Below, piece after piece: positions 15,940 through 50,923 of a stretch of DNA of 64,000 nt. A program made the position numbers and the translations under genes. The first letter of the stretch is position 1. Each line of letters begins with the position of its first letter. Below the pieces are notes generated by a model that saw nothing but the letters and a program-made list of their open reading frames with translations, did not search any database and had not been told where the DNA came from. The stretch is from Patescibacteria group bacterium (GTDB lineage: Bacteria; Patescibacteriota; Microgenomatia; UBA10105; UBA927). The stretch covers positions 12,530 to 76,529 of the forward strand of contig JBBTUH010000002.1 in assembly GCA_038063875.1 (NCBI GenBank), given 5' to 3'.

Positions 15940-15985
15940 ACAATCTATTGTTTCGGAAATTGGGTATGTTTGTCAATACAAACCA

Positions 15986-16624
15986 TTACACTGCCCCCTT
16001 GCCGTAGATCATCGCCCACGGGCTTTTCAGTATTATGATGATATCAAGAAGCAGAGACCCTCGCTGTACATAATCAGCATCAAGCTTGATGCGTTTGTCA
16101 AAGTTTACCTCACTTCGTCCTGACACCTGCCAGTATCCAGTGATCCCAGGGCGCGCTGAAAGCACTACTTTTACCAACTCTCTGGTGTGTGGATACTTTC
16201 TTTGCTGCTCTATAAGCTCGTCAGGATAATAGGGTCTGGGGCCTACTAAACTCATATCACCTTTAAGGACATTTAAGAATTGTGGAATCTCATCGAGTGA
16301 ATGTTTGCGGATAAATTTGCCAACAGTGGTCACCCGAGGATCCTCAAGCAATTTGTAACTGTTTCGCTTGTACTCTTGATACAGCGCCTTTAGTGTCGGA
16401 TCTGTACGTAACTTCTCATGCGCATTGACGATCATTGATCGAAATTTTAGAAGTTTAAACGGTCTCCCATCTTTGCCGACGCGCTCAGGCGTGTCAGCAA
16501 ATATAGGTCCCGGTGAATCAAGTGTGATGGCAATTGCCACGAGAATACTTATAGGCAAGAAAAAAACAAAAAGGATCACACTGCCAACCAAATCTATACA
16601 CCGCTTAAAAATGGAATACCACAT
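15986..16624 (-). CDS. undecaprenyl-phosphate sugar phosphotransferase (small bacterial sugar transferase family, PglC/WbaP C-terminal type); initiating phosphoglycosyl transferase
   Basis: 212 aa. N-terminal re-entrant helix. KLLKFRSM and [21 protein letters not shown] motifs are diagnostic of PF02397. Confidence 0.85.
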
Positions 16625-32721: not shown

Positions 32722-32729
32722 GGTTGTTG

Positions 32730-33830
32730 TTAAAAGCCCATCTTTTGCTCTCGCAAATGTTGGGCCTGTTCTGCTCCACGTGCCGGATTATTAAATAAGT
32801 CCATATATAGTTGAATATTTGATACCACAGGAGCCTTTTTCCCAGAAGGAGTAGATATCTGTTGTGTCTGATAAAAAACTCCTTCGTCGTAGGGAATATA
32901 TAGCTCAACATTAGCGCCATTTTCAACTTGTTGAAGACCGAGAAGTTTTTCCCAGTTTTCTAAATCACCAGATTGCTTAATATAAAACTGTAACTTTGTA
33001 ATTCCACGAATAAAGGGGGCAATCAGATCTGCGCCGCTAAAATACGATAAAGCAAATGGCAAGTTTTCAGCTTTCTCTAAAACAGAGGTAAGAAGTTCTG
33101 TAGGATTTTGCACGAAACTAAAAAAGGTAAACTTCTTTATTTTATAGGAGGGATATACTTTTTCCCACGCTTTTAGTAAAAAAACAGGATCCCTCAAAGA
33201 GAGCCTATCTTCTTGATTCCACTCGATTAATTCTTCTTCAATCATTCGATCCAATGTTTTGTGCGTTTGCCCTAGGCTAACGTTGGATTCTTCTGCTAAT
33301 TCACCTAACAGCCAAGTTTTTATCGGTTGAGTAAGTAATACACGAGTAATTCTGCTTGAAACTGGAGCAAAAAGATTTTTTAGCGGCACTTTTTGAACAA
33401 AAGGGTTTTTTTCAACAATTTTTTCGATATACAAAGAACCTTTTTTGAGATAGAAATTGCCAGCTAAATCCATAATTCCCACACCTTCTTCCTTAGCGAC
33501 TTGGCGAGCTTTTTCACCTATAAACTGTCCGGCAACAAAGGGTATGCTCCCAGCTTGAATTGCGTATGCTTTAACGTGACGGGCAACTTCTCTAAAACTA
33601 GCTGTTCCGCCTGTATATTTAACCTCAATAGCGACTTGATAATCCCTGCCTTCAACAGTGAGAATTCCTTGTGAATCAGGACTATTTGTGCCCATTGCTG
33701 GCACGACAAGACCCTCAAAAGCTAAACCCTGAGGAATACTGGCTGATAGTTGATTTATTATTGTCTTTTCGTTCATATAAGACTTTTCATTAAACAGTGA
33801 AAGTATATCAAATAGTGAAAATGATTGCAA
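32730..33830 (-). CDS. hypothetical protein with central winged-helix-like segment; putative partner/antitoxin of the downstream NTase (TTG start)
   Basis: 366 aa. The TTG start was confirmed by reading the codons. The central SSRITRVLLTQPIKTWLLGELAEESNVSLGQTHKTLDRMIEEELI looks like a wHTH. Confidence 0.35.
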   Translation of the reverse strand: MQSFSLFDILSLFNEKSYMNEKTIINQLSASIPQGLAFEGLVVPAMGTNSPDSQGILTVEGRDYQVAIEVKYTGGTASFREVARHVKAYAIQAGSIPFVAGQFIGEKARQVAKEEGVGIMDLAGNFYLKKGSLYIEKIVEKNPFVQKVPLKNLFAPVSSRITRVLLTQPIKTWLLGELAEESNVSLGQTHKTLDRMIEEELIEWNQEDRLSLRDPVFLLKAWEKVYPSYKIKKFTFFSFVQNPTELLTSVLEKAENLPFALSYFSGADLIAPFIRGITKLQFYIKQSGDLENWEKLLGLQQVENGANVELYIPYDEGVFYQTQQISTPSGKKAPVVSNIQLYMDLFNNPARGAEQAQHLREQKMGF

Positions 33831-38080: not shown

Positions 38081-38656
38081 TTATACCCCAATAACCTCTC
38101 GCAATAAGTTTCCTACCGCACTGCCAAAAAGAGGTAAATATTTTTTTATTTTGTTTTTATCAAGTTCTTCCGTGTGCCACCCATGATAACTTTTTGTTTT
38201 TTTACCTCTCGATATTAAATACAACATATCCAAAACAGCTTTTTCCGGCTCGGCAATATATGTCCCTCCTACCAAGTTAAATCCAAAAAACAGTTCCGAT
38301 TTTATTTTTGAATACTCGCACACAACATTCTTCAAAATTATCCGCTTGGAATGTCTGGAAGTGGCAAGCGTCAGATTATACAGTCCCTGATCTATAATTC
38401 CATACTTTGATAATGCGCTTTCAAAGCTTATATAGCTTGGATAATACAGTTGCGTGGCAAGTTTTTCTACTTCAAACGCATGACCTCGCAGCATATACAC
38501 GCCCCTAGCTATTTGGATTAGGACGGTGGCGTCTTTTAACCTCTTGATAGCCGTATGGATATGCGTCTCATCGGGAAACAGTTTTTTTATATCAGAAATG
38601 TCAAAAACATCCTTCCCCAGCTGTTCTATTTTTTCGACAAGCTCATCTTTTCTCAT
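38081..38656 (-). CDS. AbiEi-like antitoxin/transcriptional regulator (type IV TA, AbiEi_4 N-terminal domain)
   Basis: GVYMLRGH...YPSYISFESALSKYGIID matches the AbiEi N-domain consensus (RGVY...P.aYISleSAL..hGl). 4-bp overlap with the upstream NTase. Confidence 0.55.
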   Translation of the reverse strand: MRKDELVEKIEQLGKDVFDISDIKKLFPDETHIHTAIKRLKDATVLIQIARGVYMLRGHAFEVEKLATQLYYPSYISFESALSKYGIIDQGLYNLTLATSRHSKRIILKNVVCEYSKIKSELFFGFNLVGGTYIAEPEKAVLDMLYLISRGKKTKSYHGWHTEELDKNKIKKYLPLFGSAVGNLLREVIGV

Positions 38657-39336
38657 AAAGCAAACTCCTCCAACACCTTACGATGATTTATTGGGATGAA
38701 TGGATTTAACCGATCCATCAGTTGTTTTTGGGTATACTTAAATTCTTGTTTTATCGCAAATGCCGTATGTAACTTTTGGTGTATGTACCATGCATCAAAT
38801 AAATCCCTAGGCTCTCTTCTTTCCTTCGTTTCCAAAATCTTTACTTTATCCTTTAAAATGGCTTCAATAGTATACACGTTACCAGAAACTTCAATATTAT
38901 TAAAAGGACTTCGCAGAAGACCTACAGTAGAAGCAAAATCTCCCACATTTTTATTAATTTCTACTTTTATGCCGATAGGTATGGGTTTAAATCCCACATC
39001 AAACACTATCTTGGCAAAAAATGTGTTGCGTTTATCATATATATCTTTTACTTTTACTTCAGGCATAATGCTTGATAATTTCTCTATAGTACTTTTAAAA
39101 GAAGCGTACGGAATGCTTTTGAGTAAAGAAAAATCTAAATCCTCGGAAAATCGAAACGAACCATATGCAAGACGCAAAGCCGTCCCTCCTTTAAAAACCA
39201 ACTCCCTCTCAAATGAAGATGTGAAAAGCGTATCCAAAATATACATCTGGTAGTGCTCTTTAAGAATATTGTCAGTAACCGTACGATATTCAACCGCAAG
39301 TTTTTCCGCCTGATCTTGTGTTAACATACTATACAT
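38653..39336 (-). CDS. nucleotidyltransferase AbiEii/DUF1814 toxin family
   Basis: ELVFKGGTALRLAYGSFRFSEDLDFSL is the diagnostic DUF1814 signature (kGGTAL...R.SEDlDf). Confidence 0.8.
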   Translation of the reverse strand: MYSMLTQDQAEKLAVEYRTVTDNILKEHYQMYILDTLFTSSFERELVFKGGTALRLAYGSFRFSEDLDFSLLKSIPYASFKSTIEKLSSIMPEVKVKDIYDKRNTFFAKIVFDVGFKPIPIGIKVEINKNVGDFASTVGLLRSPFNNIEVSGNVYTIEAILKDKVKILETKERREPRDLFDAWYIHQKLHTAFAIKQEFKYTQKQLMDRLNPFIPINHRKVLEEFAL

Positions 39337-39375: not shown

Positions 39376-40596
39376 TCAAAAATCAGCGAAGCGCGCAAGC
39401 GCTTTATCAAATTCATTTTCCCACGTATTTTCTTTTGCGAAATGAATGGAAGCCTCACGCATAGATTGATAAAGTTTCGGGGTAGTTAATATCTTTTGTA
39501 TCGCTTGTGCAAACGCTTCTTTCGTATCATCCACAAGAAGTCCTGCGCCTACCGCATGTATATCCTGCCCAAGCGGCGGCACATCCGTCGTAATCACCGG
39601 CAATCCCGCTGCTACATACGCTCGTATTTTTGTCGCATCACCATATTTTCGTGCGGATCCCTCTACGTTTTTATATGGCGCAAGAGCTACCTGAAACGTA
39701 CGAGCAAGGCTAGAAATTTTTTCTCTGTCTGCGATAAACCCATGAAATATGACGTTCTTACTAATTCCCAATGCTTTTGCTAATTCTTTTAATCTCTCTT
39801 CATTCGGCTCACTCCCACCAATAATATGCAAGATAACATTCGGTATTGTTTTAGCTACGATCGCTGTCGCTTGTACTGCGATATCCGGTCCATTTTCAAA
39901 TCCTAAGGTGCCCAAAAATACAAGAGTATTTTTTTTAATCTTCGTTATTGGCAATGCGTGTATTTGCTTAGGATACAACGCATTTGGCACATGAAGTACA
40001 GGCGCTGCTTTCAACGGATCTAAACCCGCTTTGATACGTGCGGGCATCATGGCTTTTGACACATCCCAAATGACATCAGCATGCATACAGGCCTGCCTAT
40101 CTAGCCAAAGATAAAGAGCATTAAACCAGTGAGAAACATATCGTCGTGGCGAATAATCCGACACATAATACACCACAGTTTTTACCCTTCCCAAACGACG
40201 AAGAAATACTCCCGCGAGCGCATTAATAGCTTCAAATCCGATAAAAAGATCAAACGGCTTCCTTGTTCTCAAACCTTCAACAATAACGGAAAGATAGTCT
40301 CTGATCTTAAACACTATTTGAGTCCCAGACGTATTTGAAAGCCACAATAAAGGAGAAAGAATTGTTAGGACAAATGCCGGCTCTTGAAATGAAACAAATT
40401 TTCCATCCTCATATACTTCTACGCGCGGATTTACAAAATCACTCCCCGGATATACCTGATCTATAAGTACCACTCGCTCAACTCTGGGTACGAAATAATC
40501 ACGCATCGGCTCCAAATTTCCATTGATAGGAAGCCTCACTCCATCTTTCCATGGTGAAAACGTAGCGATAAGGACATGAAAAGATTTATCTATCAT
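39376..40596 (-). CDS. glycosyltransferase family 4
   Basis: 406 aa. C-terminal VFLGTLGFENGPD...HIIGGSEPNEE...YVAAGLPVITTDV. Confidence 0.75.
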   Translation of the reverse strand: MIDKSFHVLIATFSPWKDGVRLPINGNLEPMRDYFVPRVERVVLIDQVYPGSDFVNPRVEVYEDGKFVSFQEPAFVLTILSPLLWLSNTSGTQIVFKIRDYLSVIVEGLRTRKPFDLFIGFEAINALAGVFLRRLGRVKTVVYYVSDYSPRRYVSHWFNALYLWLDRQACMHADVIWDVSKAMMPARIKAGLDPLKAAPVLHVPNALYPKQIHALPITKIKKNTLVFLGTLGFENGPDIAVQATAIVAKTIPNVILHIIGGSEPNEERLKELAKALGISKNVIFHGFIADREKISSLARTFQVALAPYKNVEGSARKYGDATKIRAYVAAGLPVITTDVPPLGQDIHAVGAGLLVDDTKEAFAQAIQKILTTPKLYQSMREASIHFAKENTWENEFDKALARFADF

Positions 40597-42595
40597 GCGC
40601 GCGAGATGTAAATAGGAATAGAAGTACTACGAATAATGTACTAATGGAAATCCACCTCCCCCATAGGTAATATCGACGTGGGGTAAATTCTATAATTACT
40701 TTGCCGTCCGCCATTTCTTGCAGCGCAAACGACATGATTCCAAAATTTTCTTTTTCCGGTGCTATTTTCTTTCCGTTTACAATCGCCTGCCACCCGTGAT
40801 GAAACGACTCCGACATCACAAGTTTTGTGGGTTGCTCTGTAATAACCTCTACCTCGTAATAATCATCAGTTATATTACGCCAGTTTAAAACTGTTCCATT
40901 TTCTATCCAAAAATAATCTTTTGATGGTGGTATTTCATACACTGCGACATCACCCGATTGAATTTTCGTAAGCCATGACACAGTATCAAGAACTTTCTCT
41001 ACATCATCTCTTTTTGTTTGACTATATTTTCTGTCATCGGTAAATATTTCTCCATACGGATCAAAGGGAACGATGATATACCGAATGCTCAAAGCATCCA
41101 ATTGATCTCTAACGGTCGCAATTTGCATCGCGCGTTCTAAAGAAGCGGCGTCAGTGGCGCCCAAAAGTGGTCCTGCTTCTATGGATAACTGATTTTGGGA
41201 AGTGAAGGTAAATCTGCTTTGTCGAGGAACCCACAATGTACGAAAAAATCCTTGTTCTTGAGACAACAATTGTTTTAATGCAATATACTGCTTGGGAACT
41301 TCTCGATAGGTAAATGTACCACCCAAGGCACCTACCATAGAAGGACGAATTAAAATCATCCAATACAATAAAAATACGACCGGAATAAGCCACACTAATG
41401 TAGCATAATATTTTTTTGTGACTTGAGTAATAAAATAAAGAGTAAACGGAATAAGCACGGCATACGAGGTCATAATCAGCACATAAAATTTCGTGGGGTC
41501 GCGAAACATCACAAAAAACGGGATATGCTCAAACAGCCACACGTACACCAAACCAAATGGCTCATTGGCACCTTTGGACAAAAATGCCCCGACTAAACCA
41601 AGTGTCGCAAATCCAAAAACAAATGCATTTTCTTTAATTTTTTTTGTAAAAAGTAAACTAGAAAACGCAAGGATCGGAAGAACGAGAAATTCAGGCTGCA
41701 AAAAATACGTTTTTCCAAACAAATTCTCTGGCCAATTAGGATGGAGAAGCGAAAGTGCGTGAGAAAAATCAGCAAAACTAAAAAATCGGAGTGCGGAAAT
41801 CGTCGTGTACGCACTTCCTAGTGTATCAAGAGTATTCTCTTTAAGAATCAACAGTGGCAACACCCAATAAAGATTTAAAAATATGCTTACTGCACCCGCC
41901 ACAATGCCAAATCGCAACCGTTTCCAAAATAATACAAGTCCATGCTCCTCAAAGAGACAAAGTATCCCCATGCTGATAGCTGAAAGGTATGCAATCCGAG
42001 GATCGAGAGAAATTTGCATTCCAAATACTGCCCCTAATATAAGAGTTGTTGTCCACGGATCTTTTGTACCACGAATAAATCGAAAAAATGCAATAAGCAC
42101 CCATGGAAATATCGACGCAGCATAAAACACCCCCATTTGCCCGCCACCTGTTACCATAAGCACGTAGGTATTCGTCGTCAAAATAAGTGATGCTATTGCA
42201 CGCATCCAGAGGTATGATCTTGGCACTATTGTCGCCATAAGCTGCCAGCCGCCGGTCGCTATAAAAATGAGGGGACACAAAAACCAAAATAGTTTATACA
42301 CGATTACCCATGGCAATCCACTTGCTACAGAAAGCCATGAAGAAATAAAATTATAGGTACTCAAAAAATACGACGGTGACAATCCCCCTAAACCTCCACC
42401 ATACCCACCTTGCCATGCACTAGACAACTGCGCCATCTCGTTTACCATTTCAGGAAATCGATACGACCAATCACCTCCAATAATTTCACCACCTGTAAAC
42501 CACGGTCTATATATAAAAATAAGAAATAACAAAACTAAAAATCCAACAAACACAGCTTTTCTATTCATACGACCCCATTTTTTATATATCTCCAC
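40586..42595 (-). CDS. polytopic membrane protein, GT-C-like (distant paralog of the two downstream giants; AftD/DUF3367- or YfhO-like architecture)
   Basis: 669 aa. About 12 N-terminal TM helices, an extracytoplasmic domain and a final C-terminal TM anchor. The N-terminal WFTGGEIIGGDWSYRFPE parallels the WLK.G.MDLGGDS.RLYFYDP motif of the paralogs. Confidence 0.5.
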   Translation of the reverse strand: MEIYKKWGRMNRKAVFVGFLVLLFLIFIYRPWFTGGEIIGGDWSYRFPEMVNEMAQLSSAWQGGYGGGLGGLSPSYFLSTYNFISSWLSVASGLPWVIVYKLFWFLCPLIFIATGGWQLMATIVPRSYLWMRAIASLILTTNTYVLMVTGGGQMGVFYAASIFPWVLIAFFRFIRGTKDPWTTTLILGAVFGMQISLDPRIAYLSAISMGILCLFEEHGLVLFWKRLRFGIVAGAVSIFLNLYWVLPLLILKENTLDTLGSAYTTISALRFFSFADFSHALSLLHPNWPENLFGKTYFLQPEFLVLPILAFSSLLFTKKIKENAFVFGFATLGLVGAFLSKGANEPFGLVYVWLFEHIPFFVMFRDPTKFYVLIMTSYAVLIPFTLYFITQVTKKYYATLVWLIPVVFLLYWMILIRPSMVGALGGTFTYREVPKQYIALKQLLSQEQGFFRTLWVPRQSRFTFTSQNQLSIEAGPLLGATDAASLERAMQIATVRDQLDALSIRYIIVPFDPYGEIFTDDRKYSQTKRDDVEKVLDTVSWLTKIQSGDVAVYEIPPSKDYFWIENGTVLNWRNITDDYYEVEVITEQPTKLVMSESFHHGWQAIVNGKKIAPEKENFGIMSFALQEMADGKVIIEFTPRRYYLWGRWISISTLFVVLLFLFTSRAHDR

Positions 42596-45500
42596 ATTCC
42601 ATACGATAGTAAACCGATTAATGCCATGGCACTTATGCTTGCACCAATATAAAAATATGATTGCATACTCATATACACTTCCAAATCATATTCACTCTGG
42701 CCATCGGCATCTTCAGGCTTTATATACCACGCGTTGGCATATCCATTCGCTTGAAAGTGACGCGTGTTCGCGATACCTTTACCAGAAGCGGCAAGAGAGA
42801 CGCGCCACCTGCGATTGTACGCTTCGCTTAAGCTTAATACGTATGGCCCATGCGCTCCAGTAACATGAACTTTATACATCGTCGGATTGACTTGAACAAA
42901 CGATATGGTAGGTGGCAAACCATCCTGATTCTGAATCTTCTTTGTAACCATCATGAGAGGATGCGGTACATGAACAAGCGATACGTTTTTAAGCTCAATT
43001 CGTGAAAGTGATAATTGATCAGTGGACGGAGATATCTGTACAAACCCAGTATTGACGTGCGTATTGGTCCGGACCACAGCTTGATACTGTTGCCATGTAG
43101 GGGATTTGAGCATATCTTCAACGATCGTACTTGTTCCGTCAGCCTTTTCAGGCTTTATCTGACTTTCTAGCATCCGGACGACAAACGGTTCCCCACTTGT
43201 CTTATAAGAAAATGTCAAAAGATAATAGCTTTGCGGCTGCCAATCATCAATTTTCCACACCAATCCTTTTGCACCCTTAATATACCGTGCGTCTATCGCA
43301 AAACTTGCTGAATCTGTAGCGGAAAGTTCTGATTCTAGCATCATTCTCGAATTATTCGTTAGCATATTTTGTTGTTCCATCAAAGAAAGACTCCCTTGAT
43401 CCAAGGGATTACTTTCTCCATGACTTACTGTTCCCAATTTTACCCATCGCTCTTTCAAATTCACAGGAACTTGGAAACGTGCATCGTTGATAGTCACAGA
43501 AAGTCGATCATGTACGTTATATGTACTCGTATCCACATACAGGTCGTATGGTCCCGCGTCTTTTTTGGGTAAAGACGCGCTATACGGCACTGTCAAATCG
43601 GAAAGATCCGCACGCGTCCTCTCGAGAAGATTTCCAAACATCATATCTGTTATTCCCTCAAGATAATCTCGATGTGAAACTATTGGGTCTCTATTTTTAA
43701 TCAACAGTGTTACACGCCGATAGTGCTGACGCAAGTATTCAGTCAAAAGAAATCTTTGCTCCGTCTTCCATAATAGCGACTGATCTGTGGTATCAATCAT
43801 TTTGATACTATCATCAAAATATCTATAGTAGCGTGCAAGCGTCGCCTCCCAACTGTTCATAGACATTCTCGATTCTTTATAGACAGTGTTAAAATCCTCA
43901 AGAGTGCGTAGCGTTCCCAATACCGGCATACTCTCACCAAAGCGTTCCAACTCAAGAATTCGCTTGGCAGATAAAAATGATTGTTGATCGATACGCGAAA
44001 AATAATTGGCTCTACCAAACTTCCATAATTTTACTTTTTCCTTCACCACTACCAACGGATATAAAAATGACGATGGCGACTGAGTCACAAACGCATGATG
44101 CATGATTCTCGGCGGATACGGATTTTTTACCATGGCAAGAAGATGGCTTTGCGATTCTGCAGGATAAAAACGAGCGTCAGCAAGCTCGACATCCTCCTCC
44201 TCAAAAAATACAGACGTATCAATAGTATTTGGCAAAACAGTCAATGGCACAGATGCATCGTTTAGTACGCGTGATAGAGAAAGTACATTGCTGGGAACAT
44301 ATACCCGAGGCACAACATCTTTATCATCAAGCGCATACACAAAAAATCGATTATCAAACGACTCTAAGAGTCGCAACGAAAGCGAATCGACAAACTGCTT
44401 ATATTCCTTCTGACGCTTGGGTAAATATTTTCTCACGTCATCGTAGGGAAACGCAGGAAAGGCATCGTACACCTGTGGATCGCTATTATAAAATATATAC
44501 TTGATATTTAAGATGCCCAGTATGCGCTTTACCATTGTAGTATCGTTATTGGCAGTTGCATCCAATAGAATTTCTCGATATCTTCCAAACTCCGCAGTAC
44601 CCGCAAAATCCTGCTTTCCCGCCAAATATGAAATCATCGATGGTCCTTGGTATGCCCCCTCACTTTTTCCAGCCACAATCTGATACCCTGGGTCCGTCAA
44701 CGGGAGCGTTACAAACTTTCCATCATTGGGCAATTGCCTGATGTATTCAAGTGCTTTTACAAATACTGGATCCATGTTCATCGCTATGCGACTATTAGTG
44801 GATTGCCATAAAATCGGGTTTGTTAAGGATCCATTGATAAACGGCCACGCATTGACAAAGAGTAAGAAAATAAATACTCCTAACCAAATCTTCACCTTTG
44901 GATACGCATTTATAATGACAAAAAGTGTCATACCAAAGACAAGAGCGTAATAAAACAAATACGCAGAAGCCCACTGCCCATAAAAATTTCTAAATATTGA
45001 AAATCCGGGAAGTATAAAAAGTTTTTTATACAGCGACAATCCCGCCTCACCTATATTTGCCGTAGCAAAAAAAAATATAGTCAAAAATCCTACACAAAAT
45101 ATTAGAAGCGTTTTTCTATATTTTTGTGGCTCTCCTGCTCCTCGTAACAAGCCAACTATCAGCGTAAACGGCACAAAAATCATAAAGAATAAAAATGTGG
45201 AAAGTTCTCTTGTCTGTGGTAGCATCAACACATTAATTGACGCCTTTATACTTGGTGCTATGGCCGAAAAGTACCCAAGTCCCCGATCATACTTCCCAGC
45301 GGCAGAAAACACAGACGTATACAAAACGCTCCCAGGAGTCACCATACTCGCAATTTGTGGCACTATATGAAATGCCTGAAGAAGTATAAATATAATACAT
45401 GCTACGCCAATCTGTTTCCAACGGATATTCTGACCCAATACCCATTGTTTATACATCAAAAGCAAGACAAGAGTTATCGGATAAAATGCAAAAAAAACCG

Positions 45501-46080
45501 GAGCCGCCGCAAAACTAAAATTGGCAGAAAATACAAAAGTCAGCAAGAGCGCACAGAAAAGATAATACAGTCGATCAGATACCATAAATCGCAATAACAA
45601 ATAAAACATAATAGGGTTAAGGAACACATGATTGTGCGTCATCAGCACCTTGTCCCAACCAAAAATAGAAACAGGGGAGAAAACATACAATAACCCTCCT
45701 GCCACCGCAGCAAACTCTTTTAATCTTTCACCTTTTGTAGCAGTATAGAGAAGTTGTACGATCGATAAATACACAAACAAAAAACTCATAGACACACTCA
45801 AACCATGAAATGCGCTTATTAATACCGTCGATGACACAAATATTCGCTTTGCTACCGCCAAAAAAGCCACAAATGGTATGGTCATAAAACCGATATTCTC
45901 CGAGCCTACACCAGAGGGAGAGACGGCAAATAAAGAATAATTGAGAAGATACCGAAGAGGATCATAAAAGTACAATCGGCTGGAATCACCCCCCAGATCC
46001 ATAAATCCAGGTTTGAGCCAAAAAAAAGGAAAGATAAAGAGAATAAGCGTAATTACAAAAGGAAGAAGCTTACTCCTCAT
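42565..46080 (-). CDS. giant GT-C-like membrane glycosyltransferase (AftD/DUF3367-like) with ~650-aa extracytoplasmic domain and C-terminal TM anchor
   Basis: About 1171 aa from the internal Met (MRSKLLPF) that aligns with the paralog start. The ORF track gives 46137. PGFMDLGGDSSRLYFYDPLRYL resembles the AftD N-terminal signature (PG....DTKLDL..NPLRFL). Confidence 0.5.
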   Translation of the reverse strand: MRSKLLPFVITLILFIFPFFWLKPGFMDLGGDSSRLYFYDPLRYLLNYSLFAVSPSGVGSENIGFMTIPFVAFLAVAKRIFVSSTVLISAFHGLSVSMSFLFVYLSIVQLLYTATKGERLKEFAAVAGGLLYVFSPVSIFGWDKVLMTHNHVFLNPIMFYLLLRFMVSDRLYYLFCALLLTFVFSANFSFAAAPVFFAFYPITLVLLLMYKQWVLGQNIRWKQIGVACIIFILLQAFHIVPQIASMVTPGSVLYTSVFSAAGKYDRGLGYFSAIAPSIKASINVLMLPQTRELSTFLFFMIFVPFTLIVGLLRGAGEPQKYRKTLLIFCVGFLTIFFFATANIGEAGLSLYKKLFILPGFSIFRNFYGQWASAYLFYYALVFGMTLFVIINAYPKVKIWLGVFIFLLFVNAWPFINGSLTNPILWQSTNSRIAMNMDPVFVKALEYIRQLPNDGKFVTLPLTDPGYQIVAGKSEGAYQGPSMISYLAGKQDFAGTAEFGRYREILLDATANNDTTMVKRILGILNIKYIFYNSDPQVYDAFPAFPYDDVRKYLPKRQKEYKQFVDSLSLRLLESFDNRFFVYALDDKDVVPRVYVPSNVLSLSRVLNDASVPLTVLPNTIDTSVFFEEEDVELADARFYPAESQSHLLAMVKNPYPPRIMHHAFVTQSPSSFLYPLVVVKEKVKLWKFGRANYFSRIDQQSFLSAKRILELERFGESMPVLGTLRTLEDFNTVYKESRMSMNSWEATLARYYRYFDDSIKMIDTTDQSLLWKTEQRFLLTEYLRQHYRRVTLLIKNRDPIVSHRDYLEGITDMMFGNLLERTRADLSDLTVPYSASLPKKDAGPYDLYVDTSTYNVHDRLSVTINDARFQVPVNLKERWVKLGTVSHGESNPLDQGSLSLMEQQNMLTNNSRMMLESELSATDSASFAIDARYIKGAKGLVWKIDDWQPQSYYLLTFSYKTSGEPFVVRMLESQIKPEKADGTSTIVEDMLKSPTWQQYQAVVRTNTHVNTGFVQISPSTDQLSLSRIELKNVSLVHVPHPLMMVTKKIQNQDGLPPTISFVQVNPTMYKVHVTGAHGPYVLSLSEAYNRRWRVSLAASGKGIANTRHFQANGYANAWYIKPEDADGQSEYDLEVYMSMQSYFYIGASISAMALIGLLSYGMWRYIKNGVV

Positions 46081-46424
46081 GCGGTTATCTCCCGCCACTG
46101 CGCAATAAGCCCAAGAGCCATAAACAATACTAGCCACACAGCAAATCGCTCAGTAGATATTGAGGCACTGCTTACAAGATACGATATCGCCATGACGACC
46201 AACAAAACAAAACATACTTGAAACACTCGTACACTCGTAAGCTTTCCTGTACGCGCAAAGAACCAATAAAGAAAAAGCCCGCCAAACAATCGCACATCTT
46301 TTGAAATTGGAAACACGAAGACTTCCGCTACAATAAGTATGGAGACGAATGCTAAAAACGTCAGTTGATTTTCATGAATCCATTCGCCAAACACCACAAG
46401 CATGTTTTGTGTTTTCTTAAACAT
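46077..46424 (-). CDS. small 3-4 TM membrane protein, unknown function
   Basis: 115 aa, hydrophobic. Wedged between two giant paralogs and abutting the corrected start of the downstream gene. Confidence 0.35.
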   Translation of the reverse strand: MFKKTQNMLVVFGEWIHENQLTFLAFVSILIVAEVFVFPISKDVRLFGGLFLYWFFARTGKLTSVRVFQVCFVLLVVMAISYLVSSASISTERFAVWLVLFMALGLIAQWREITA

Positions 46425-48558
46425 ATGTTTTTTGACGAATTGACATTAAAGCTAATACGATCAAAGATATCAAGGTAACACCCCACCCAATCCAAATATA
46501 TTTTTGGCTCTTGAGCCTTAAGGTCATAGTATAACTCTTTTTTCCTTCAAGATCATCTGTGGTGAATCGCCACGCATTCGCATAGCCATTTAGTTTGACA
46601 TGCCGATCCTCCGGCACGAGCGTGTTATCAACAAACAATTGCCAATTACGATTGTATGTATTATTCCACACTACTATATTTGGATGCGTATCCTTGGTCG
46701 TAAGCGACATATGATAGAAAACGGGACTTATCCGTGTCGCCATAAATTGCGCTTGACTATCTGGTGCACCCTCAAGCACATCGGTCACATACAATTCTGA
46801 TCTCCATACCGATCTGTCCAATTCATATATTACATACGAACCGTTTGTATAAATGCGTTTCGTCGGAAGCTTGTCTACAAACTCTTCATACCCCTTCTGC
46901 GTTTGTGGAAAAGATGTTTTCATGTATGTATATGGCGACTGTGGGAAACCTGCCTCATAAATAGCAGGATCACTGTTGTGGAAAATATATCGTATAGATA
47001 ATCGAGACAGCAAGCTTGTAATCGCCTCGTAATCTTTTTCCCGTGCATATTTCATCATATCCTCCGGAAATGGACCAAAAATCTGGTAGCCATTAAAATC
47101 TTTTTTACCGGTAAGCTGCGAAATCGTAGAAGTGCCTACATACGCACCGCCATTTTTACCGGCCAATACTTGACTATACGCATCCGTCAAGGGCAGCGTC
47201 AAAATTTTGCCATCATCCGGAAGCGATCGGATAAACGCTAATGTTTCTTCATATTTAGGATCCATGGCAAACGTCATACGTACATTATCTGACTGCGTAT
47301 GAATTTTATTCACCGTCTCCCCCTTTAGAAAAGGCAACGCACTGACTACCCAAAGCACTATGATTACTCCACCCAAATACGACATCCACCTGCGATATGA
47401 CAAATGCTTAATAATTACGTGTATCGCTAACCCTAAAAGTAGGGCATAAAAGAACGCATACACAGACGGCCACTGACCGATAAAATTACGAAACATCGAA
47501 AAACCAGGAATGTAATACAAATTTTTATAAAATTCTACGCCGACGTTGGTAATCTTGGCCGCGTAAAGATACAGAGTAACTAAATAAAATCCAGCAGTAA
47601 GAATCAAAACCTTACTTTTTGTATTCAAAACAAATCCTATCATGATAATGGTCGGCGCTATAAAACTCACCCAAGTAAGCTGTGTGACCATAGGTGTCAT
47701 AAAAATATCTTTTACGACACTTGCAAGCGGTAAAATGGCAGTAAAATACCGCACACCTTCATGCATAATACTTGTGCGATCAAACACTCGAGTATTGGTA
47801 AAGCTTCCGGGTTCAAAAAGATTAATAACCTGCGGCAGGAGATGAAATGCTTGAATACCCAAAAACAACAATCCTCCATAGAACATCCATCTCCATGGAA
47901 TTACTTTCCGGACGACAAACTTGGTGTAGAGCAGTAGAAACACTATTGACAAAGGATAAAACGCAAAAAACGGCGGAGCACTCGTAAGGGCGAAATTAGG
48001 CGCGAAGACAAAGCTAATCCATAGTGCGGCCCAAAGATATTTGACGTTGGTGTCTGTAAAAAACTTGAGGATCAAATAAAACATCAGAGGATTTAAAAAT
48101 ACTTGATTATGAGAGGTGAGCGCCTTGTCATAATTACCAAGCATAATCGGAGCTAAGATATAAAACATACCCGCCATAAGCGGGGCAAGTATACTTTTTT
48201 TTCTGATGACTTCCCTTACTATCCCATACATCGCCAAGAATCCAACGCTCAACTTAAGACCCGAAATAATATTGATTACAATCGTCGGAGACTGGAAAAC
48301 AAACCTCAGCACGGCAATCAGAGCTACATAGGGAAGATAGTACGTATTAGGCTCTGCAAGCCCAAGTCCTTCCGGCACAAAATGATAGAGGCTCACATTT
48401 TTGATAAAGGATATGGGGTCATAAAAATATAATCTCCCGCTATCACCTCCTAAGTCCATCTCGCCAGATTTCAACCAAAAAAATGGTATGGAAAATAAAC
48501 AGGCTGCAAATATCCAGTGAATATTTCGACCTATCCATTTGTATATGATCGTATTCAT
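46417..48558 (-). CDS. GT-C-like membrane glycosyltransferase (AftD/DUF3367-like), paralog of 42565-46080
   Basis: 713 aa. The N-terminal FWLKSGEMDLGGDSGRLYFYDPISFI is nearly identical to the paralog motif. Same TM-domain/extracytoplasmic-domain/C-terminal-TM architecture. Confidence 0.5.
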   Translation of the reverse strand: MNTIIYKWIGRNIHWIFAACLFSIPFFWLKSGEMDLGGDSGRLYFYDPISFIKNVSLYHFVPEGLGLAEPNTYYLPYVALIAVLRFVFQSPTIVINIISGLKLSVGFLAMYGIVREVIRKKSILAPLMAGMFYILAPIMLGNYDKALTSHNQVFLNPLMFYLILKFFTDTNVKYLWAALWISFVFAPNFALTSAPPFFAFYPLSIVFLLLYTKFVVRKVIPWRWMFYGGLLFLGIQAFHLLPQVINLFEPGSFTNTRVFDRTSIMHEGVRYFTAILPLASVVKDIFMTPMVTQLTWVSFIAPTIIMIGFVLNTKSKVLILTAGFYLVTLYLYAAKITNVGVEFYKNLYYIPGFSMFRNFIGQWPSVYAFFYALLLGLAIHVIIKHLSYRRWMSYLGGVIIVLWVVSALPFLKGETVNKIHTQSDNVRMTFAMDPKYEETLAFIRSLPDDGKILTLPLTDAYSQVLAGKNGGAYVGTSTISQLTGKKDFNGYQIFGPFPEDMMKYAREKDYEAITSLLSRLSIRYIFHNSDPAIYEAGFPQSPYTYMKTSFPQTQKGYEEFVDKLPTKRIYTNGSYVIYELDRSVWRSELYVTDVLEGAPDSQAQFMATRISPVFYHMSLTTKDTHPNIVVWNNTYNRNWQLFVDNTLVPEDRHVKLNGYANAWRFTTDDLEGKKSYTMTLRLKSQKYIWIGWGVTLISLIVLALMSIRQKTYV

Positions 48559-49862
48559 GAGATTTTATATTTGGCAAGAAATACATCAAAAACAGAGAGT
48601 ACATACTGTATCATTTCATTCGTAATACCGGGATACACGCCAATCCAAAATCCATCATTCATAATTTTATCAGAATTGGATAGCGTACCTACGACTCGCA
48701 TATCTTTTCTCCCTCGGTATGCCGGATGTTTTAATAAATTTCCAGCAAAAAGATTTCTCGTCCCTATCTTATGATCCTCGAGCCACTCTACAAGCTCCAA
48801 TCTGGTAAATGGTGCACCATCAGCAATGACTATAGGAAACCCAAACCAACAAGGATCAGCTCCGTTTTCTACATCCATAAACAAGAAATATTTTTCGTAT
48901 TTGGATAATCCTTCTAGCAAAGCTTGATAATTAGCCTTTCTTGCTTTAATAAACTTCGGTAATTTATCTAACTGAGCTAGTCCTATAGCCGCCTGCATAT
49001 CAGTAAGCTTCACATTATATCCAATTTGCGAATAAATATATTTATGATCATAGCCATAGGGCAAGTCGCCGAGCTGCCAACGAAAACGTTTGCCGCAGGT
49101 ATTATCTTTTCCCGTATCACACCAACAGTCCCTTCCCCAATCTCGAAACTGTCGGATCGCTTTATGAATAAACGGATTACTTGTCACTACTGCCCCACCT
49201 TCACCCATGGTAATCTGGTGAGCAGGATAAAATGAAAAGGTTGCAACATGACCGAAAGTAGAAACTAATTTGCCATTGTATGTAGAGCCTAATGCGTCAC
49301 AACAATCCTCTATAAACCAAAGCTTGTGTTTGGTTACCAGCTTCATAATCCCGTCAAGTGGCATGGGATTGCCTAGGGTATGAGCCATCATGATGGCTTT
49401 TGTTTTAGGAGTTATCGCTTTTTGTATCGCCTGCACCGTCGCATTCTTTGTCCCCAAATCATTATCGATAAATACAGGGATGAATCCATTTTGAATAATA
49501 GGATTTACTGTAGTAGGAAACCCTGTGGCGACAGTAATGACCTCGTCACCTGCCTTCAGCGCACGCTCGCCAAAAACACTACTGGTAAGCGCCGAAAGTG
49601 CGATAAGATTGGCAGACGATCCAGAATTGACTAAGCTTACATATTTCACACCCAAATAATCACGAAATCGTCTTTCAAATTCTTCACTAAATCGTCCCTC
49701 CGTCCACCAGCCATCAAGCACTGCTTCGACCCCCTTATACATTTCCTCCGCATCAAAAACCTTGCCAGACACAGGCACAGGTGTTACGTTTGGAATAAAT
49801 TTCGATTTGTTATATTTAGCCTTATAATGTGCGCGAATGTGTGAAGCTAGTGCGTTTTTCAT
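48555..49862 (-). CDS. rfbH: CDP-6-deoxy-D-xylo-4-hexulose 3-dehydrase (E1; PMP- and [2Fe-2S]-dependent; RfbH/DdhC)
   Basis: Near-collinear match to remembered RfbH: GERALKAGDEVITVATGFPTTVNP, DCCDALG, FSFYPAHQITMGEGG (His in place of the aminotransferase Lys) and WGRDCWCDTGKDNTCGKRF (Fe-S Cys ligands). Confidence 0.9.
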   Translation of the reverse strand: MKNALASHIRAHYKAKYNKSKFIPNVTPVPVSGKVFDAEEMYKGVEAVLDGWWTEGRFSEEFERRFRDYLGVKYVSLVNSGSSANLIALSALTSSVFGERALKAGDEVITVATGFPTTVNPIIQNGFIPVFIDNDLGTKNATVQAIQKAITPKTKAIMMAHTLGNPMPLDGIMKLVTKHKLWFIEDCCDALGSTYNGKLVSTFGHVATFSFYPAHQITMGEGGAVVTSNPFIHKAIRQFRDWGRDCWCDTGKDNTCGKRFRWQLGDLPYGYDHKYIYSQIGYNVKLTDMQAAIGLAQLDKLPKFIKARKANYQALLEGLSKYEKYFLFMDVENGADPCWFGFPIVIADGAPFTRLELVEWLEDHKIGTRNLFAGNLLKHPAYRGRKDMRVVGTLSNSDKIMNDGFWIGVYPGITNEMIQYVLSVFDVFLAKYKIS

Positions 49863-49891: not shown

Positions 49892-50923
49892 TCAAATCAC
49901 AAACAGACGTTTAAACAATTTTTTCCCGTGAAACTCTATCTCTGAATACCCATACGCAATAACCATCAAAAAACACATAATCGGATGAAGAAACCATGCC
50001 ACATCCCGACGCTTTACATATCCTCGAATACTAAAGATAATCGGCTCAACAAACGTCAAAGAATAAATGACATATTTGAATAAATTCCATCGATCACGCG
50101 AAGACGTCCAATCCATGACATGATACGTCCGCTCTGCTGATTTTTCATCAGTAAAAAGCTGCTTTATGGCCACACGTCTTTTAATATGTAACAAAATATT
50201 GTTGCCCATCACATGAATGATGCTATTGTGTATCACTGCGACTGTATTATGACCACGCTGAACTATATCTTGAAATGCATCAACGTGAATATATGATCTC
50301 TGTTTTTTTATGGCTTCATTAAGAATGGAACGGTTAATAAGAAATCCGTTATCTCCCAACGTAGGCGTATTGTCTGAATTGAAACGAACAACTGAGTATC
50401 GTGCAGATTTACGTATTACGTATCCTTTCGTATACAAATCATTGACGATTGGTTCCTTATCAGATTTTTGTAGATAATACAACGTAGGATCTGGTGATCC
50501 TATCAGAGCAGTATATTTTGTTAAAAATGACATGTCGTCACGATAATCATTATGCATCGGGTAACTGCAAAAGATATCCTCCTTTATCATGGGTTCTACC
50601 AAACACGCCAACCAATTCTCACCGACGGGTATATTGTCAGATTCTAAAATAAGCACCAAATCACCTTTAGCTTTTTTCAATCCCAAAGAAAATCTGTACT
50701 GCTCCTTATCTCTTAAATCAGGACGAACTATCACTGTACACCCATATTTCCTTGCAAGGCTAGCGATTGCATTTGTCGAGCCCCCATCCATAATGATATG
50801 TTCGATGATATATTTTGAATATGTTTGAGATTTAAGTGAATCTAATACATTGCTGAATATTGCCAAATCACTATTATATGTGCCTGTCACAATGGACACA
50901 GTCGGATTAACAATCATATTCAC
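49892..50923 (-). CDS. glycosyltransferase family 2 with C-terminal membrane anchor
   Basis: VSIVTGTYNSDL...IIMDGGSTN and a hydrophobic C-terminus. Confidence 0.75.
   Translation of the reverse strand: MNMIVNPTVSIVTGTYNSDLAIFSNVLDSLKSQTYSKYIIEHIIMDGGSTNAIASLARKYGCTVIVRPDLRDKEQYRFSLGLKKAKGDLVLILESDNIPVGENWLACLVEPMIKEDIFCSYPMHNDYRDDMSFLTKYTALIGSPDPTLYYLQKSDKEPIVNDLYTKGYVIRKSARYSVVRFNSDNTPTLGDNGFLINRSILNEAIKKQRSYIHVDAFQDIVQRGHNTVAVIHNSIIHVMGNNILLHIKRRVAIKQLFTDEKSAERTYHVMDWTSSRDRWNLFKYVIYSLTFVEPIIFSIRGYVKRRDVAWFLHPIMCFLMVIAYGYSEIEFHGKKLFKRLFVI

Follow-up and report, generated by a model that had tools for sequence, protein, structure and literature searches.

CPR bacteria (Patescibacteria) attach to host cells, and depend on them, by way of their envelope. 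Most have never been cultured, and next to nothing is known of the chemistry of that envelope. A 64,000-nucleotide stretch of DNA from a Patescibacteria group bacterium (hereafter the window) raises the question of how such an envelope might be assembled, as it encodes, in immediate succession, three large membrane proteins and a small hydrophobic one. A preliminary description, made from the nucleotide sequence alone, had read the three as tandem paralogous glycosyltransferases of the GT-C type, resembling AftD and, to a lesser extent, YfhO, with a coupled micro-protein. Here we ask what these proteins are, how they are related to one another and what they might build.

Results

The cassette consists of four overlapping minus-strand genes, which encode GT-C proteins of 713, 1171 and 660 aa (copies 3, 2 and 1) and a membrane protein of 115 aa. 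All four open reading frames lie at the positions and on the strand given for them in the preliminary description, and its correction of the start of the giant copy 2 was right: translation from the ATG at 46080, within an ATGA overlap with the stop codon of the micro-protein gene, yields a 1171-aa product identical to P0340 as called in public data. The sizes of copies 3 and 2 stand as described, while the 669 aa of copy 1 probably do not; its start is most likely M10 (ATG at 42568, in an ATGA overlap with the copy-2 stop codon), and the resulting 660-aa protein has the same sequence as P0121, which NCBI annotates as "hypothetical protein [Patescibacteria group bacterium]". The micro-protein frame overlaps the copy-3 stop codon by 8 nt, and overlaps of 4-11 nt join the DegT, copy 3, micro-protein, copy 2, copy 1 and GT4 genes into one run (Table 1).

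Table 1. Features of the cassette and its flanking genes, in window coordinates.
Feature	Position	Strand	Length or residues	Remark
GT2, membrane-anchored, candidate polyprenyl-phosphate sugar synthase	49892..50923	-	343 aa	N-terminal Pfam PF00535
DegT/DnrJ/EryC1 aminotransferase	48555..49862	-		Pfam PF01041, E 1.6e-94
Copy 3, mid-size GT-C_A-fold glycosyltransferase	46417..48558	-	713 aa
Copy 3, first extracytoplasmic loop	48415..48483	-		FFWLKSGEMDLGGDSGRLYFYDP (translation); candidate catalytic D39
Micro-protein	46077..46424	-	115 aa
Copy 2, reading frame as listed	42565..46137	-	1190 aa
Copy 2 (giant GT-C), corrected start	42565..46080	-	1171 aa
Copy 2, first-loop motif	45958..46026	-		FFWLKPGFMDLGGDSSRLYFYDP (translation); candidate catalytic D32
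Copy 2, giant-specific helical bundle	43618..44061	-	residues 674-821	DSSP of model
Copy 2, giant-specific beta-sandwich region	42937..43590	-	residues 831-1048	CBM4/16/22-like carbohydrate-binding fold
Copy 1, reading frame as listed	40586..42595	-	669 aa
Copy 1, revised start	40586..42568	-	660 aa
Copy 1, degenerate first-loop motif	42452..42502	-		WFTGGEIIGGDWSYRFP (translation); candidate catalytic D33
GT4 glycosyltransferase, closing the overlapping gene run	39376..40596	-		Pfam PF00534, E 6.4e-23

The claim that the three large proteins are paralogs proved sound for copies 2 and 3, which are 38% identical over 594 aa (E 3e-127) and have a C-terminal module in common as well, and overstated for copy 1. 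Pairwise comparison of copy 1 with the other two gave an E value of 0.006 in one case and no significant match in the other, and its relationship emerges through HHalign, in which the copy-1 and copy-3 families align over 600 columns (99.4%, E 5e-22) with their GGD loops in register. Copy 1 shares the architecture of the other two GT-C proteins and belongs to a family of its own, remotely related to theirs. For copies 3 and 2 that architecture, with a polytopic N-terminal domain, then an extracytoplasmic domain and finally a single TM helix at the C-terminus (residues 685-712 and 1138-1170, respectively), is seen in AlphaFold2 models with pLDDT values of 88.8 and 85.0; for copy 1, hydropathy and the full-length profile alignment agree with it, so that the arrangement originally proposed for all three is upheld.

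The most similar solved structure to both modelled copies is AftD, with aligned spans of 569 and 646 residues at 11-14% identity. All further structural matches are GT-C enzymes (STT3, PMT, PglB, AglB, ALG9/12, AftA/B, ArnT and DPY19); those of the OST and PMT type align over about 330-445 residues, and the similarity to STT3, PglB and AglB lies mainly in the membrane module. The N-terminal module of TM1-7, with the juxtamembrane helices JM1 and JM2 between TM1 and TM2, places the fold in GT-C_A. At the level of sequence profiles, none of the window proteins matched PF11847, PF09586 or PF13231, the families named in the preliminary description, or any other Pfam GT-C family at E<=1, PF11847 was absent from all 40 copy-3 relatives (0/40), and sequence-profile searches with these proteins reached no solved GT-C structure. 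Because neither a Pfam GT-C family nor a PDB sequence profile was matched, the GT-C assignment rests on predicted structures, and because no match passed threshold, the window proteins fall outside the Pfam families of AftD and YfhO. The likeness to AftD and YfhO that had been noted therefore holds for fold and architecture, with AftD as the closest structure and a CBM-like module in the giant, and fails for Pfam family membership; judged by sequence, the three proteins represent two GT-C families that lack a Pfam model and appear distinct from the AftD and YfhO families.

The first extracytoplasmic loop of each copy carries the GGD motif that had been pointed out earlier, in degenerate form in copy 1 (Table 1). 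Invariant positions in this loop are G37, G38, D39, R42, L43, Y46 and P48 in copy 3 (40 homologs), D28, G30, D32, R35, L36, Y37, Y39 and P41 in copy 2 (45 homologs) and W23, G31, G32, D33 and W34 in copy 1 (40 homologs), whose loop aligns with the GGD of the copy-2/3 family. The aspartates D39, D32 and D33 are invariant or at least 95% conserved in their respective sub-families, as R357 and D530 (copy-3 numbering) are invariant or nearly so in all three. In the model of copy 3 (TM1, residues 2-27; JM1, 40-46; JM2, 48-56), D39 sits between TM1 and JM1, at the tip of juxtamembrane helix 1, and in both models the aspartate (D39 or D32) immediately precedes JM1. The essential catalytic aspartate of GT-C_A enzymes has been defined as the one at the tip of JM1 (PMC12041299). 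In the models, the GGD aspartate occupies the site of these catalytic aspartates, and it is a candidate catalytic residue. In AftD (PDB 6W98/6WBX/6WBY), the essential K39 and D41 lie just after TM1, at the same sequence position as K29, D35 and D39 of copy 3; by position, D39 would correspond to AftD D41 and R357 to AftD K361.

The copies differ in what follows the GT-C core. In copy 3, some 12 TM helices are followed by a soluble domain, then a beta-sandwich and the C-terminal TM anchor. The giant has an AftD-like design of GT-C core, helical bundle, CBM-like beta-sandwich, a C-terminal beta-sandwich shared with the copy-3 module, and TM anchor; its ectodomain (approximately residues 416-1137) exceeds that of copy 3 by roughly 450-460 aa. 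The bundle, with six helices by DSSP of the model, has conserved charged and aromatic residues (Y674, E681, K706, R707, E710, W744, R750 and Y751) and found no match in a PDB sequence search.

Copy 1 has at least 976 homologs. Its strongest named match is NCBIfam MmpA (E 4.5e-11, residues 111-464), at 42 bits against an equivalog cut-off of 210. Among its relatives, PF11847 (GT-C_AftD/DUF3367) appeared below threshold in 2 of 40 (best 21.2 bits, cut-off 26), with a collinear match of residues 93-448 of one relative against profile positions 75-437. YfhO (PF09586) appeared in 4 of 40, all below the cut-off (best 27.8 against 28.5 bits) and covering positions 752-830 of the 835 in the profile, that is, the C-terminal 55-75 aa only; DUF6541 likewise gave sub-threshold matches.

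The micro-protein belongs to a new four-TM family (99 clusters at 50% identity) with both termini in the cytoplasm. Four TM segments are found, with the termini inside by the positive-inside rule, and five C-terminal fusions of family members to two unrelated methyltransferase families agree with this topology. D43 is invariant, conservation of E92, W97, G105 and S64 reaches 90% or more, and position 34 in TM1 is acidic in 93%; the conserved acidic residues fall in TM1 and in both outer loops. The window protein matched neither GtrA/GtcA (PF04138) nor SMR (PF00893) nor GacJ (PF10066) at E<=1, and none of 89 diverse family members matched GtrA, SMR or DUF2304/GacJ at E<=0.05. Its gene directly precedes the giant in all 28 assessable cases, with a gap of at most 6 nt in 26, and is duplicated along with it (patterns such as muGuuGc); tandem pairs of micro-protein genes occur in many loci. 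Comparative genomics thus bears out the tie between the two that had been suspected, and the giant GT-C gene has, in the micro-protein gene, an obligate companion on its upstream side.

Some 45 Patescibacteria species genomes, with GC contents of 30-54%, share the order of mid-size GT-C, micro-protein, giant GT-C and copy-1-type GT-C. With homologs of each protein numbering in the hundreds and the order found again in dozens of genomes, the arrangement is far beyond chance. The earlier view of an actinobacterial family unexpectedly present in triplicate was mistaken: this is a distinct lineage, unrepresented in Pfam and widespread in Patescibacteria, in which the multi-copy state is normal. 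In the window, the cassette lies within a glycan locus of roughly 48 kb that also encodes a PglC-type priming transferase, many GT4 and GT2 enzymes, nucleotide-sugar enzymes, methyltransferases and a Wzy-like protein, and several genomes carry methyltransferase genes as insertions in the cassette or as fusions within it.

On the upstream side, the DegT gene overlaps copy 3 by 4 nt, is translationally coupled to it, and has a homolog in 19 of 50 related loci, making it a variable neighbour outside the conserved core. The GT2, two genes upstream of the GT-C gene, has a C-terminal hydrophobic segment (308-326) and weak PDB matches, to BcsA and 6yv7. It is a candidate synthase of the lipid-linked donor and is likewise variable, occurring in 12 of 50 loci and never as the adjacent gene in the core. 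Because the GT2 and DegT genes are found in just 12 and 19 of 50 loci, they do not define the donor pathway; no decaprenyl-phospho-arabinose pathway genes are present among the annotated ORFs of the region. At the other end, the GT4 gene overlaps copy 1 by 11 nt and is syntenic in the related loci L002 and L003.

Discussion

The known systems nearest to the cassette differ from it in instructive ways. The mycobacterial arabinofuranosyltransferase AftD has the same succession of polytopic GT-C domain, soluble domain and C-terminal TM region, and a soluble domain with carbohydrate-binding modules is found in both, with three CBMs in AftD and CBM-type matches for a beta-sandwich in the giant. In contrast, the AftD C-terminus is a five-helix bundle that binds acyl carrier protein, where copies 3 and 2 are modelled with a single helix, there is no significant sequence similarity, and the host lineages differ. 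The embCAB genes and the Aft/Emb arabinan line of Mycobacteriales, in which tandem GT-C paralogs use a lipid-phosphate sugar donor outside the membrane to build one polymer, offer the closest functional analogy. The CsbB/GtcA/YfhO-type systems combine a GT-C enzyme, a small partner of 3-4 TMs and a nearby membrane GT2 (PMC8035078), and the window has a GT-C enzyme, a small four-TM protein and a candidate membrane GT2; however, they contain one GT-C enzyme where the cassette has three, the micro-protein is unrelated to GtrA/GtcA, and the YfhO likeness is confined to the C-terminal end of copy-1 relatives. MmpA (NCgl2761/Rv0226c; NCBIfam NF053599), known from Corynebacterineae only, is a polytopic protein of AftD-like build whose last TM follows an extracytoplasmic domain; it has been linked to the acetylation and transport of trehalose lipids, acts together with an acetyltransferase and a second, methyltransferase-like partner, and lacks an assigned catalytic motif (PMC8698533).

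Gene structure, homology, fold, motif position, the CBM-like fold, cassette conservation and the linkage of micro-protein to giant are what the analysis shows, whereas the enzymatic activity, donor type, acceptor, cooperation of the enzymes and role of the micro-protein are what we infer in the following. We consider it likely that the cassette is the core of a surface-glycan assembly module of Patescibacteria (CPR), comprising three GT-C_A-fold enzymes and a four-TM partner. Most likely, each enzyme would accept its sugar from polyprenyl phosphate on the outer side of the membrane, with the GGD aspartate at the tip of JM1 and the arginine of the PGF..FR loop serving catalysis and phosphate binding, and would transfer it to a growing or pre-formed extracytoplasmic glycan, in this way extending a polymer. 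The giant may grip the polymer through its CBM-like module, and the three enzymes would probably act in sequence or in a complex, as the mycobacterial Aft/Emb enzymes do for arabinan. The micro-protein would be a dedicated partner of the giant, most likely a small dimeric flippase or a donor-delivery subunit for the lipid-linked sugar, working beside cytoplasmic methyltransferases. GT-C_A enzymes draw on sugars linked to polyprenyl phosphate or diphosphate; as to the donor type here, the only pointers, all of them indirect, are the invariant arginine of the PGF..FR loop and, in the locus, the membrane GT2 and the priming transferase.

The three GT-C proteins might instead be protein glycosyltransferases, either oligosaccharyltransferases or O-glycosyl/mannosyl-transferases in the manner of STT3/PglB/AglB or PMT, that decorate S-layer, pilin or other surface proteins and make no glycan polymer. 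This is unlikely: the OST motif WWDxG (searched as WWD or WW[DE]xG) is found in none of the three, the aligned span is far longer for AftD than for OST or PMT enzymes, the C-terminal TM anchor after the soluble domain together with the CBM-like module is an AftD/YfhO design, and the traces of sequence similarity lead to AftD, MmpA and YfhO rather than to STT3 or PMT. The MmpA trace in turn could mean that one or more copies, especially copy 1, are non-catalytic scaffold or lipid-handling proteins for the modification or export of a membrane glycolipid, as MmpA, the strongest named match of copy 1, has no demonstrated glycosyltransferase activity, and methyltransferase genes in or fused within the cassette recall its methyltransferase-like partner. 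We regard this as distinctly improbable; the copy-1 score falls far under the MmpA cut-off, and the residues common to all the families, namely the aspartate of GGD, the arginine of the FR motif and the Y..D pair of the soluble domain, are kept in the copy-1 family, which argues for a retained active site.

The role of the micro-protein is more evenly contested. Four TMs in about 110 aa, a conserved acidic residue within the membrane and frequent tandem pairs are hallmarks of small dimeric transporters and flippases such as GtrA, ArnE/F and SMR proteins, and it resembles GtrA/GtcA, ArnE/ArnF and the SMR-type Rv3789 in size (~105-125 aa), TM number, the acidic residue in TM1 and occurrence as single genes or tandem pairs beside a GT-C gene; in addition, the conserved core offers no second flippase candidate. 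It differs from these small flippases in its fixed in-in topology, its one particular GT-C partner and its sequence, which in 89 representatives shows no similarity to theirs. There is a real, if somewhat less than even, chance that it transports nothing and serves the giant as a structural or regulatory subunit, like the small OST subunits or the acyl carrier protein bound to AftD, which stabilises the enzyme or tethers methyltransferases. Linkage and co-duplication with the giant specifically and not with the other two GT-C genes, ATGA coupling suggestive of stoichiometric co-expression, fusions suggestive of tethering, and the lack of similarity to the GtrA, SMR, MATE and Wzx families all speak for such a subunit, and strict coupling to one enzyme fits it equally well as a flippase. 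A function like that of GacJ, a small three-TM protein that forms a complex with GacI, a GT-A enzyme of a comparable system (PMC8035078), would make the micro-protein an activator of a GT2 that produces the lipid-linked donor at the cytoplasmic face, and not a partner of the GT-C enzyme. Its termini and the fused methyltransferases do face the cytoplasm, but this is very unlikely, as no family member matches DUF2304/GacJ, and the gene is tied to the giant in every assessable case and the scattered GT2 is never its neighbour.

Beyond the surface-glycan module itself, we advance with due reserve, and as rather unlikely in its full extent, the reading of a Patescibacteria-specific extracytoplasmic glycopolymer line with three cooperating GT-C enzymes of two undescribed families and a new class of small four-TM flippase or donor-presenting subunit for lipid-linked sugars, unrelated to GtrA, SMR, MATE and Wzx. 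This subunit would be in physical association with the CBM-bearing giant as well as, in certain lineages, with sugar methyltransferases of the cytoplasm. If true, it would mean a conserved, lineage-typical envelope polymer in a large uncultured radiation.

The two GT-C families could join CAZy and Pfam, and the case illustrates that structure prediction can recover glycosyltransferase assignments that sequence profiles miss. The micro-proteins form a small membrane-protein family that is new and whose possible part in lipid-linked sugar supply can be tested; targets for mutagenesis in heterologous systems are their D43 and E92 and, in the GT-C enzymes, the GGD aspartate and the FR arginine. 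The cassette probably builds or decorates a surface sugar polymer outside the cell membrane, and its four-gene core, conserved in many CPR lineages, invisible to Pfam and annotated only as "hypothetical", points to a shared surface glycopolymer with an arabinan-like mode of assembly.

Gene organization of the cassette and its surroundings

The genes for three GT-C proteins (copies 1, 2 and 3, copy 2 being the giant) and for a 115-aa four-TM micro-protein belong to an unbroken gene run, in which reading of the junctions gave successive overlaps of 4-11 nt. The likely starts of copies 2 and 1 are fixed by the ATGA overlaps: the giant begins at 46080 and has 1171 aa, the same as the publicly called protein P0340, and copy 1 begins at 42568 with 660 aa, corresponding to the NCBI entry P0121 (“hypothetical protein [Patescibacteria group bacterium]”). 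Translation reproduced the first-loop motif recorded in the preliminary description, which is present in copies 2 and 3 and degenerate in copy 1. Promoter and terminator scans yielded nothing above chance, and no tRNA or Rfam features were found within the 64-kb window. One database protein, P0010 (ENA, on a contig of 996,207 bp), has 417 aa and covers 58% of copy 3 at 100% identity. This suggests that the copy 3 gene was given another start, or is frameshifted or split, in a second assembly of this genome or of one nearly identical to it.

Features of the cassette and the surrounding glycan locus, in window coordinates
Feature	Coordinates	Strand	Remarks
Histidyl-tRNA-synthetase-like gene	12009-13382		Just outside the apparent start of the super-locus
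658-aa single-TM DUF4012 protein, then 212-aa PglC-type Bac_transf priming phosphoglycosyltransferase	13963-16624	minus	
PglC-type priming transferase	15986-16624	minus	The transferase of the row above; super-locus
473-aa, ~10-TM protein	21910-23331	minus	No Pfam match at E ≤ 1
993-aa, ~18-TM protein	23328-26309	minus	Super-locus
AbiE-type pair with AbiEi_2-like protein	31786-33830	minus	
311-aa weakly NTP_transf_8-like protein	31786-32721		Partner of AbiEi_2-like protein
AbiEi_2-like protein	32730-33830	minus	
AbiE-type pair with AbiEii	38081-39336	minus	
191-aa protein	38081-38656		Partner of AbiEii
AbiEii nucleotidyltransferase toxin	38653-39336	minus	
Copy 1, 669-aa ORF	40586-42595	minus	ORF reading; 11-nt overlap with GT4 gene
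Copy 2 (giant), 1190-aa ORF	42565-46137	minus	ORF reading; ATGA overlap with copy 1
Micro-protein, 115-aa ORF	46077-46424	minus	ORF reading; ATGA overlap with copy 2
Copy 3, 713-aa ORF	46417-48558	minus	ORF reading; 4-nt overlap from DegT aminotransferase, 8-nt overlap with micro-protein

The cassette resides in one glycan super-locus that extends from ~16 kb to the window end and appears to start with the DUF4012 protein and the priming transferase. A ManC-like nucleotidyltransferase, many GT4 and GT2 genes, epimerases and dehydratases, a TPP enzyme, an acetyltransferase and several methyltransferases are also encoded there. The GT2 near the cassette gave weak matches to solved GT2 structures and is a candidate for the donor synthase. 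Because of an ArnT/PMT-like “WHSFRQVDTASVARIF” loop directly after TM1, the 473-aa protein is probably an additional, unrecognised GT-C-type enzyme of the super-locus. The 993-aa protein has a sub-threshold match to Wzy_C (O-antigen polymerase/ligase) at residues 222-431 (E 1.5e-4) and a “VGDDFTWLRW” loop in its second polytopic half, and, judged from these sequence features, may be a Wzy/WaaL-like domain fused to another lipid-linked-sugar enzyme. Two AbiE-type toxin-antitoxin-like pairs also lie inside the glycan locus, and the AbiEii pair is missing in two syntenic loci of other genomes (L002 and L003), where the two GT4 genes adjoin.

Two remote families of one GT-C superfamily

The preliminary description had presented three tandem paralogs, which holds for copies 2 and 3 (38% identity over 594 residues, E 3e-127 by pairwise alignment, with a C-terminal module of ~96 residues also in common), whereas copy 1 is only remotely related and forms a separate family, nearly undetectable in pairwise alignments with the other two. 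Profile-profile alignment of the copy-3 and copy-1 families gave a 99.4% probability (E 5e-22) over 600 columns and the whole length, pairing MDLGGDS with EIIGGDW and PGFSMFRNF with PGFVMFRD. The three proteins therefore belong to one superfamily with two families, one comprising copy 3 and the giant and the other copy 1.

The Pfam relationship to AftD/DUF3367 or YfhO that had been proposed for these proteins was not recovered, as no Pfam family was matched by any of the four cassette proteins at E ≤ 1, and the combined Pfam and NCBIfam scans provided no usable family for any of them. Copy 1 matched NCBIfam MmpA (E 4.5e-11) at 42 bits, far below the cut-off of 210. PDB sequence searches with the single proteins, with both family profiles and with a merged superfamily profile returned neither AftD nor any other GT-C protein. 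When 40 members of each family were scanned one by one, the copy-3 family yielded no hits and the copy-1 family yielded marginal matches to YfhO (4/40), DUF6541 (3/40) and GT-C_AftD (2/40). The YfhO matches covered the last 55-75 residues only (profile 752-830 of 835), and an AftD match was collinear over the membrane domain (residues 93-448 against profile 75-437 of 661). MmpA is described as a partial homolog of the N-terminal 668 residues of AftD (PMC8698533). Given this homology and the coordinates of the marginal hits, the sequence traces all point to the AftD/YfhO branch, each of them below the membership threshold. Horizontal transfer of the cassette GT-Cs from Actinobacteria was rejected as their origin, given the depth and breadth of the family in Patescibacteria and its identity of only ~12-14% with AftD.

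Modelled fold and catalytic loop

Copy 3 was modelled with confidence by AlphaFold2 from 40 homologs (pLDDT 88.8, pTM 0.89), and a Foldseek search of the PDB with this model ranked AftD first (6wby, E 1.4e-8, TM-score 0.53), followed by STT3A, PglB and AftA. The GT-C_A class is defined by a TM1-7 module in which two juxtamembrane helices separate TM1 from TM2, together with an essential aspartate at the JM1 tip (PMC12041299). In the copy 3 model, TM1 spans residues 2-27, JM1 residues 40-46 and JM2 residues 48-56, and these modelled helix limits put D39, the invariant GGD aspartate, precisely at the JM1 tip, the catalytic-loop position. The essential K39 and D41 of AftD lie at the same sequence position as the GGD loop, a purely positional correspondence. 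As modelled, copy 3 and the giant have the GT-C_A fold, with AftD as the nearest structure.

Relative to copy 3, three elements are inserted in the giant ahead of the C-terminal beta-sandwich and TM anchor that both proteins share. The inserts were modelled as a small beta unit, a six-helix bundle (residues 674-821) and a large beta-sandwich region (residues 831-1048). Searched on its own, the giant-specific insert had no PDB sequence match. The giant carries a CBM-like fold, and in AftD the GT-C core is likewise joined to CBMs, which bind complex arabinan. By this analogy, the CBM-like fold argues that the giant, at least, acts on polysaccharide.

Conservation of the cassette across Patescibacteria

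Hundreds of homologs of all three large proteins were detected, all annotated as hypothetical and without a Pfam domain, and the named ones come from Patescibacteria (Levy-, Gottesman-, Ames- and Parcubacteria). Locus look-ups for relatives at ~60% and ~40% identity showed an identical gene order of a mid-size GT-C, a ~105-119-aa ORF, a ~1140-1264-aa GT-C and a ~660-710-aa GT-C. A scan of GTDB species representatives gave 46 loci. Every locus was scored with HMMs of the three families, and the most frequent pattern was mid-size GT-C, micro-protein, giant and copy-1-type GT-C, with variants in which a further mid-size GT-C is present, micro genes stand in tandem or the micro-plus-giant unit is doubled. 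A micro ORF lies directly upstream of the giant in all 28 giants with upstream sequence, with a gap of at most 6 nt in 26 of them. Cassette-bearing loci range in GC from 30% to 54%. DegT homologs were present in 19/50 loci, membrane GT2 genes in 12/50 and GT4 genes in 20/50, counts which indicate that the flanking sugar-pathway genes vary and are not kept with the core.

The micro-plus-giant unit is doubled in L025, L027 and L030. Many other loci, including L007, L009, L013, L014, L023 and L037, have two tandem micro genes in front of one giant; both arrangements hint at hetero-dimeric micro-proteins. Many cassette-bearing MAGs have the record title “uncultured Gammaproteobacteria bacterium” (TPA_asm; L009, L011, L013, L014, L017, L020, L023 and others). 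As the L014 giant is 73% identical to the window giant, whose own proteins are deposited as Patescibacteria, these titles are probably placeholders or wrong taxonomy. The remotest mid-size GT-C relatives, at 25-31% identity, were found in a Nitrospirae MAG (L050) and a Guaymas “Gammaproteobacteria” MAG (L048), in each case as a lone gene without micro, giant or copy-1-type neighbours, which suggests that the family is wider than the cassette, and perhaps than Patescibacteria, or that these bins are contaminated.

The micro-protein family

An exhaustive search, clustered at 50% identity, yielded 99 clusters, almost all of 90-140 aa, and the micro-protein is a real protein family. Hydropathy and charge averaged over the family gave four TM segments and a cytoplasmic location for the N- and C-termini, with K/R residues abundant at the N-terminus and in the 58-66 loop. 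The best-kept positions are an acidic residue at position 34 in TM1 (93%) and D43 in the first outer loop (100%), with E92 and K93 in the second outer loop, W97 and G105 in TM4 and E112 near the cytoplasmic C-terminus also well conserved. In five fusions, the micro-domain is N-terminal and a SAM methyltransferase C-terminal (including L020:2910-4028, L036:11036-12088, L039:11075-12082 and proteins P0299 and P0314), and the methyltransferases come from two unrelated families (three FkbM/PF05050, two class-I Methyltransf_11/23). These fusions are independent evidence that the C-terminus is cytoplasmic and tie the micro-protein to sugar methylation. In two related loci, L002 and L004, a separate methyltransferase gene divides the giant from the copy-1-type gene.

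Weak matches among 89 micro members were to DUF6056 (9 members, best E 4e-4), DUF2298 (1) and DUF2079 (1), which are polytopic GT-C-clan families. These matches raised the idea that the micro-protein had split off from the membrane domain of a GT-C. HHalign to both local GT-C profiles gave 0.6% probability, so this origin was rejected, and the unexplained DUF6056-type signal may be compositional. A 5,556-aa protein with five apparent micro matches (P0244) consists of Gly/Val/Leu/Ala-rich repeats without a family-profile match and was discarded as an artefact.

Functional interpretation

In size, four TM segments and the acidic residue in TM1, as well as in its frequent tandem pairs and GT-C adjacency, the micro-protein resembles small, dimeric flippases of lipid-linked sugars such as GtrA/GtcA, ArnE/F and Rv3789, and a role in donor delivery or as a flippase is tentatively favoured, at slightly below even chances. 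The exclusive linkage of the micro-protein to the giant suits a dedicated subunit equally well, and a non-transporting, purely structural role is a reasonable possibility. GtrA, SMR and GacJ/DUF2304 were matched by 0/89 micro members, and a GacJ-like activator of a GT2 is very improbable.

The GGD aspartate is conserved in the merged alignment across all three sub-families and in the window proteins, as are the arginine of the PGF..FR loop (R357, R356 and R364 in the window proteins) and a Y....D pair in the soluble domain (D530, D503 and D534). On these residues, none of the three copies looks like a dead enzyme, and it is quite unlikely that copy 1, the protein with the sub-threshold MmpA match, has a non-catalytic function like that of MmpA. 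Use of the cassette for protein glycosylation is also unlikely; STT3A and PglB follow AftD among the structural matches, and the WWDxG oligosaccharyltransferase motif is absent from copies 1, 2 and 3.

Neither the GT-C superfamily nor multi-component transmembrane glycosylation is new in itself. A search of the literature found no report on CPR/Patescibacteria with GT-C or YfhO, nor one of the cassette. Under the favoured reading, the three GT-C proteins would be active glycosyltransferases using polyprenyl-phosphate sugars as donor, supplied by the micro-protein, and would work together, like the mycobacterial Aft/Emb enzymes, to lengthen or decorate an extracytoplasmic glycan. What appears to be new is two GT-C families missed by every curated profile, a small partner family without relation to known flippases, and a fixed three-enzyme cassette across a major uncultured radiation.
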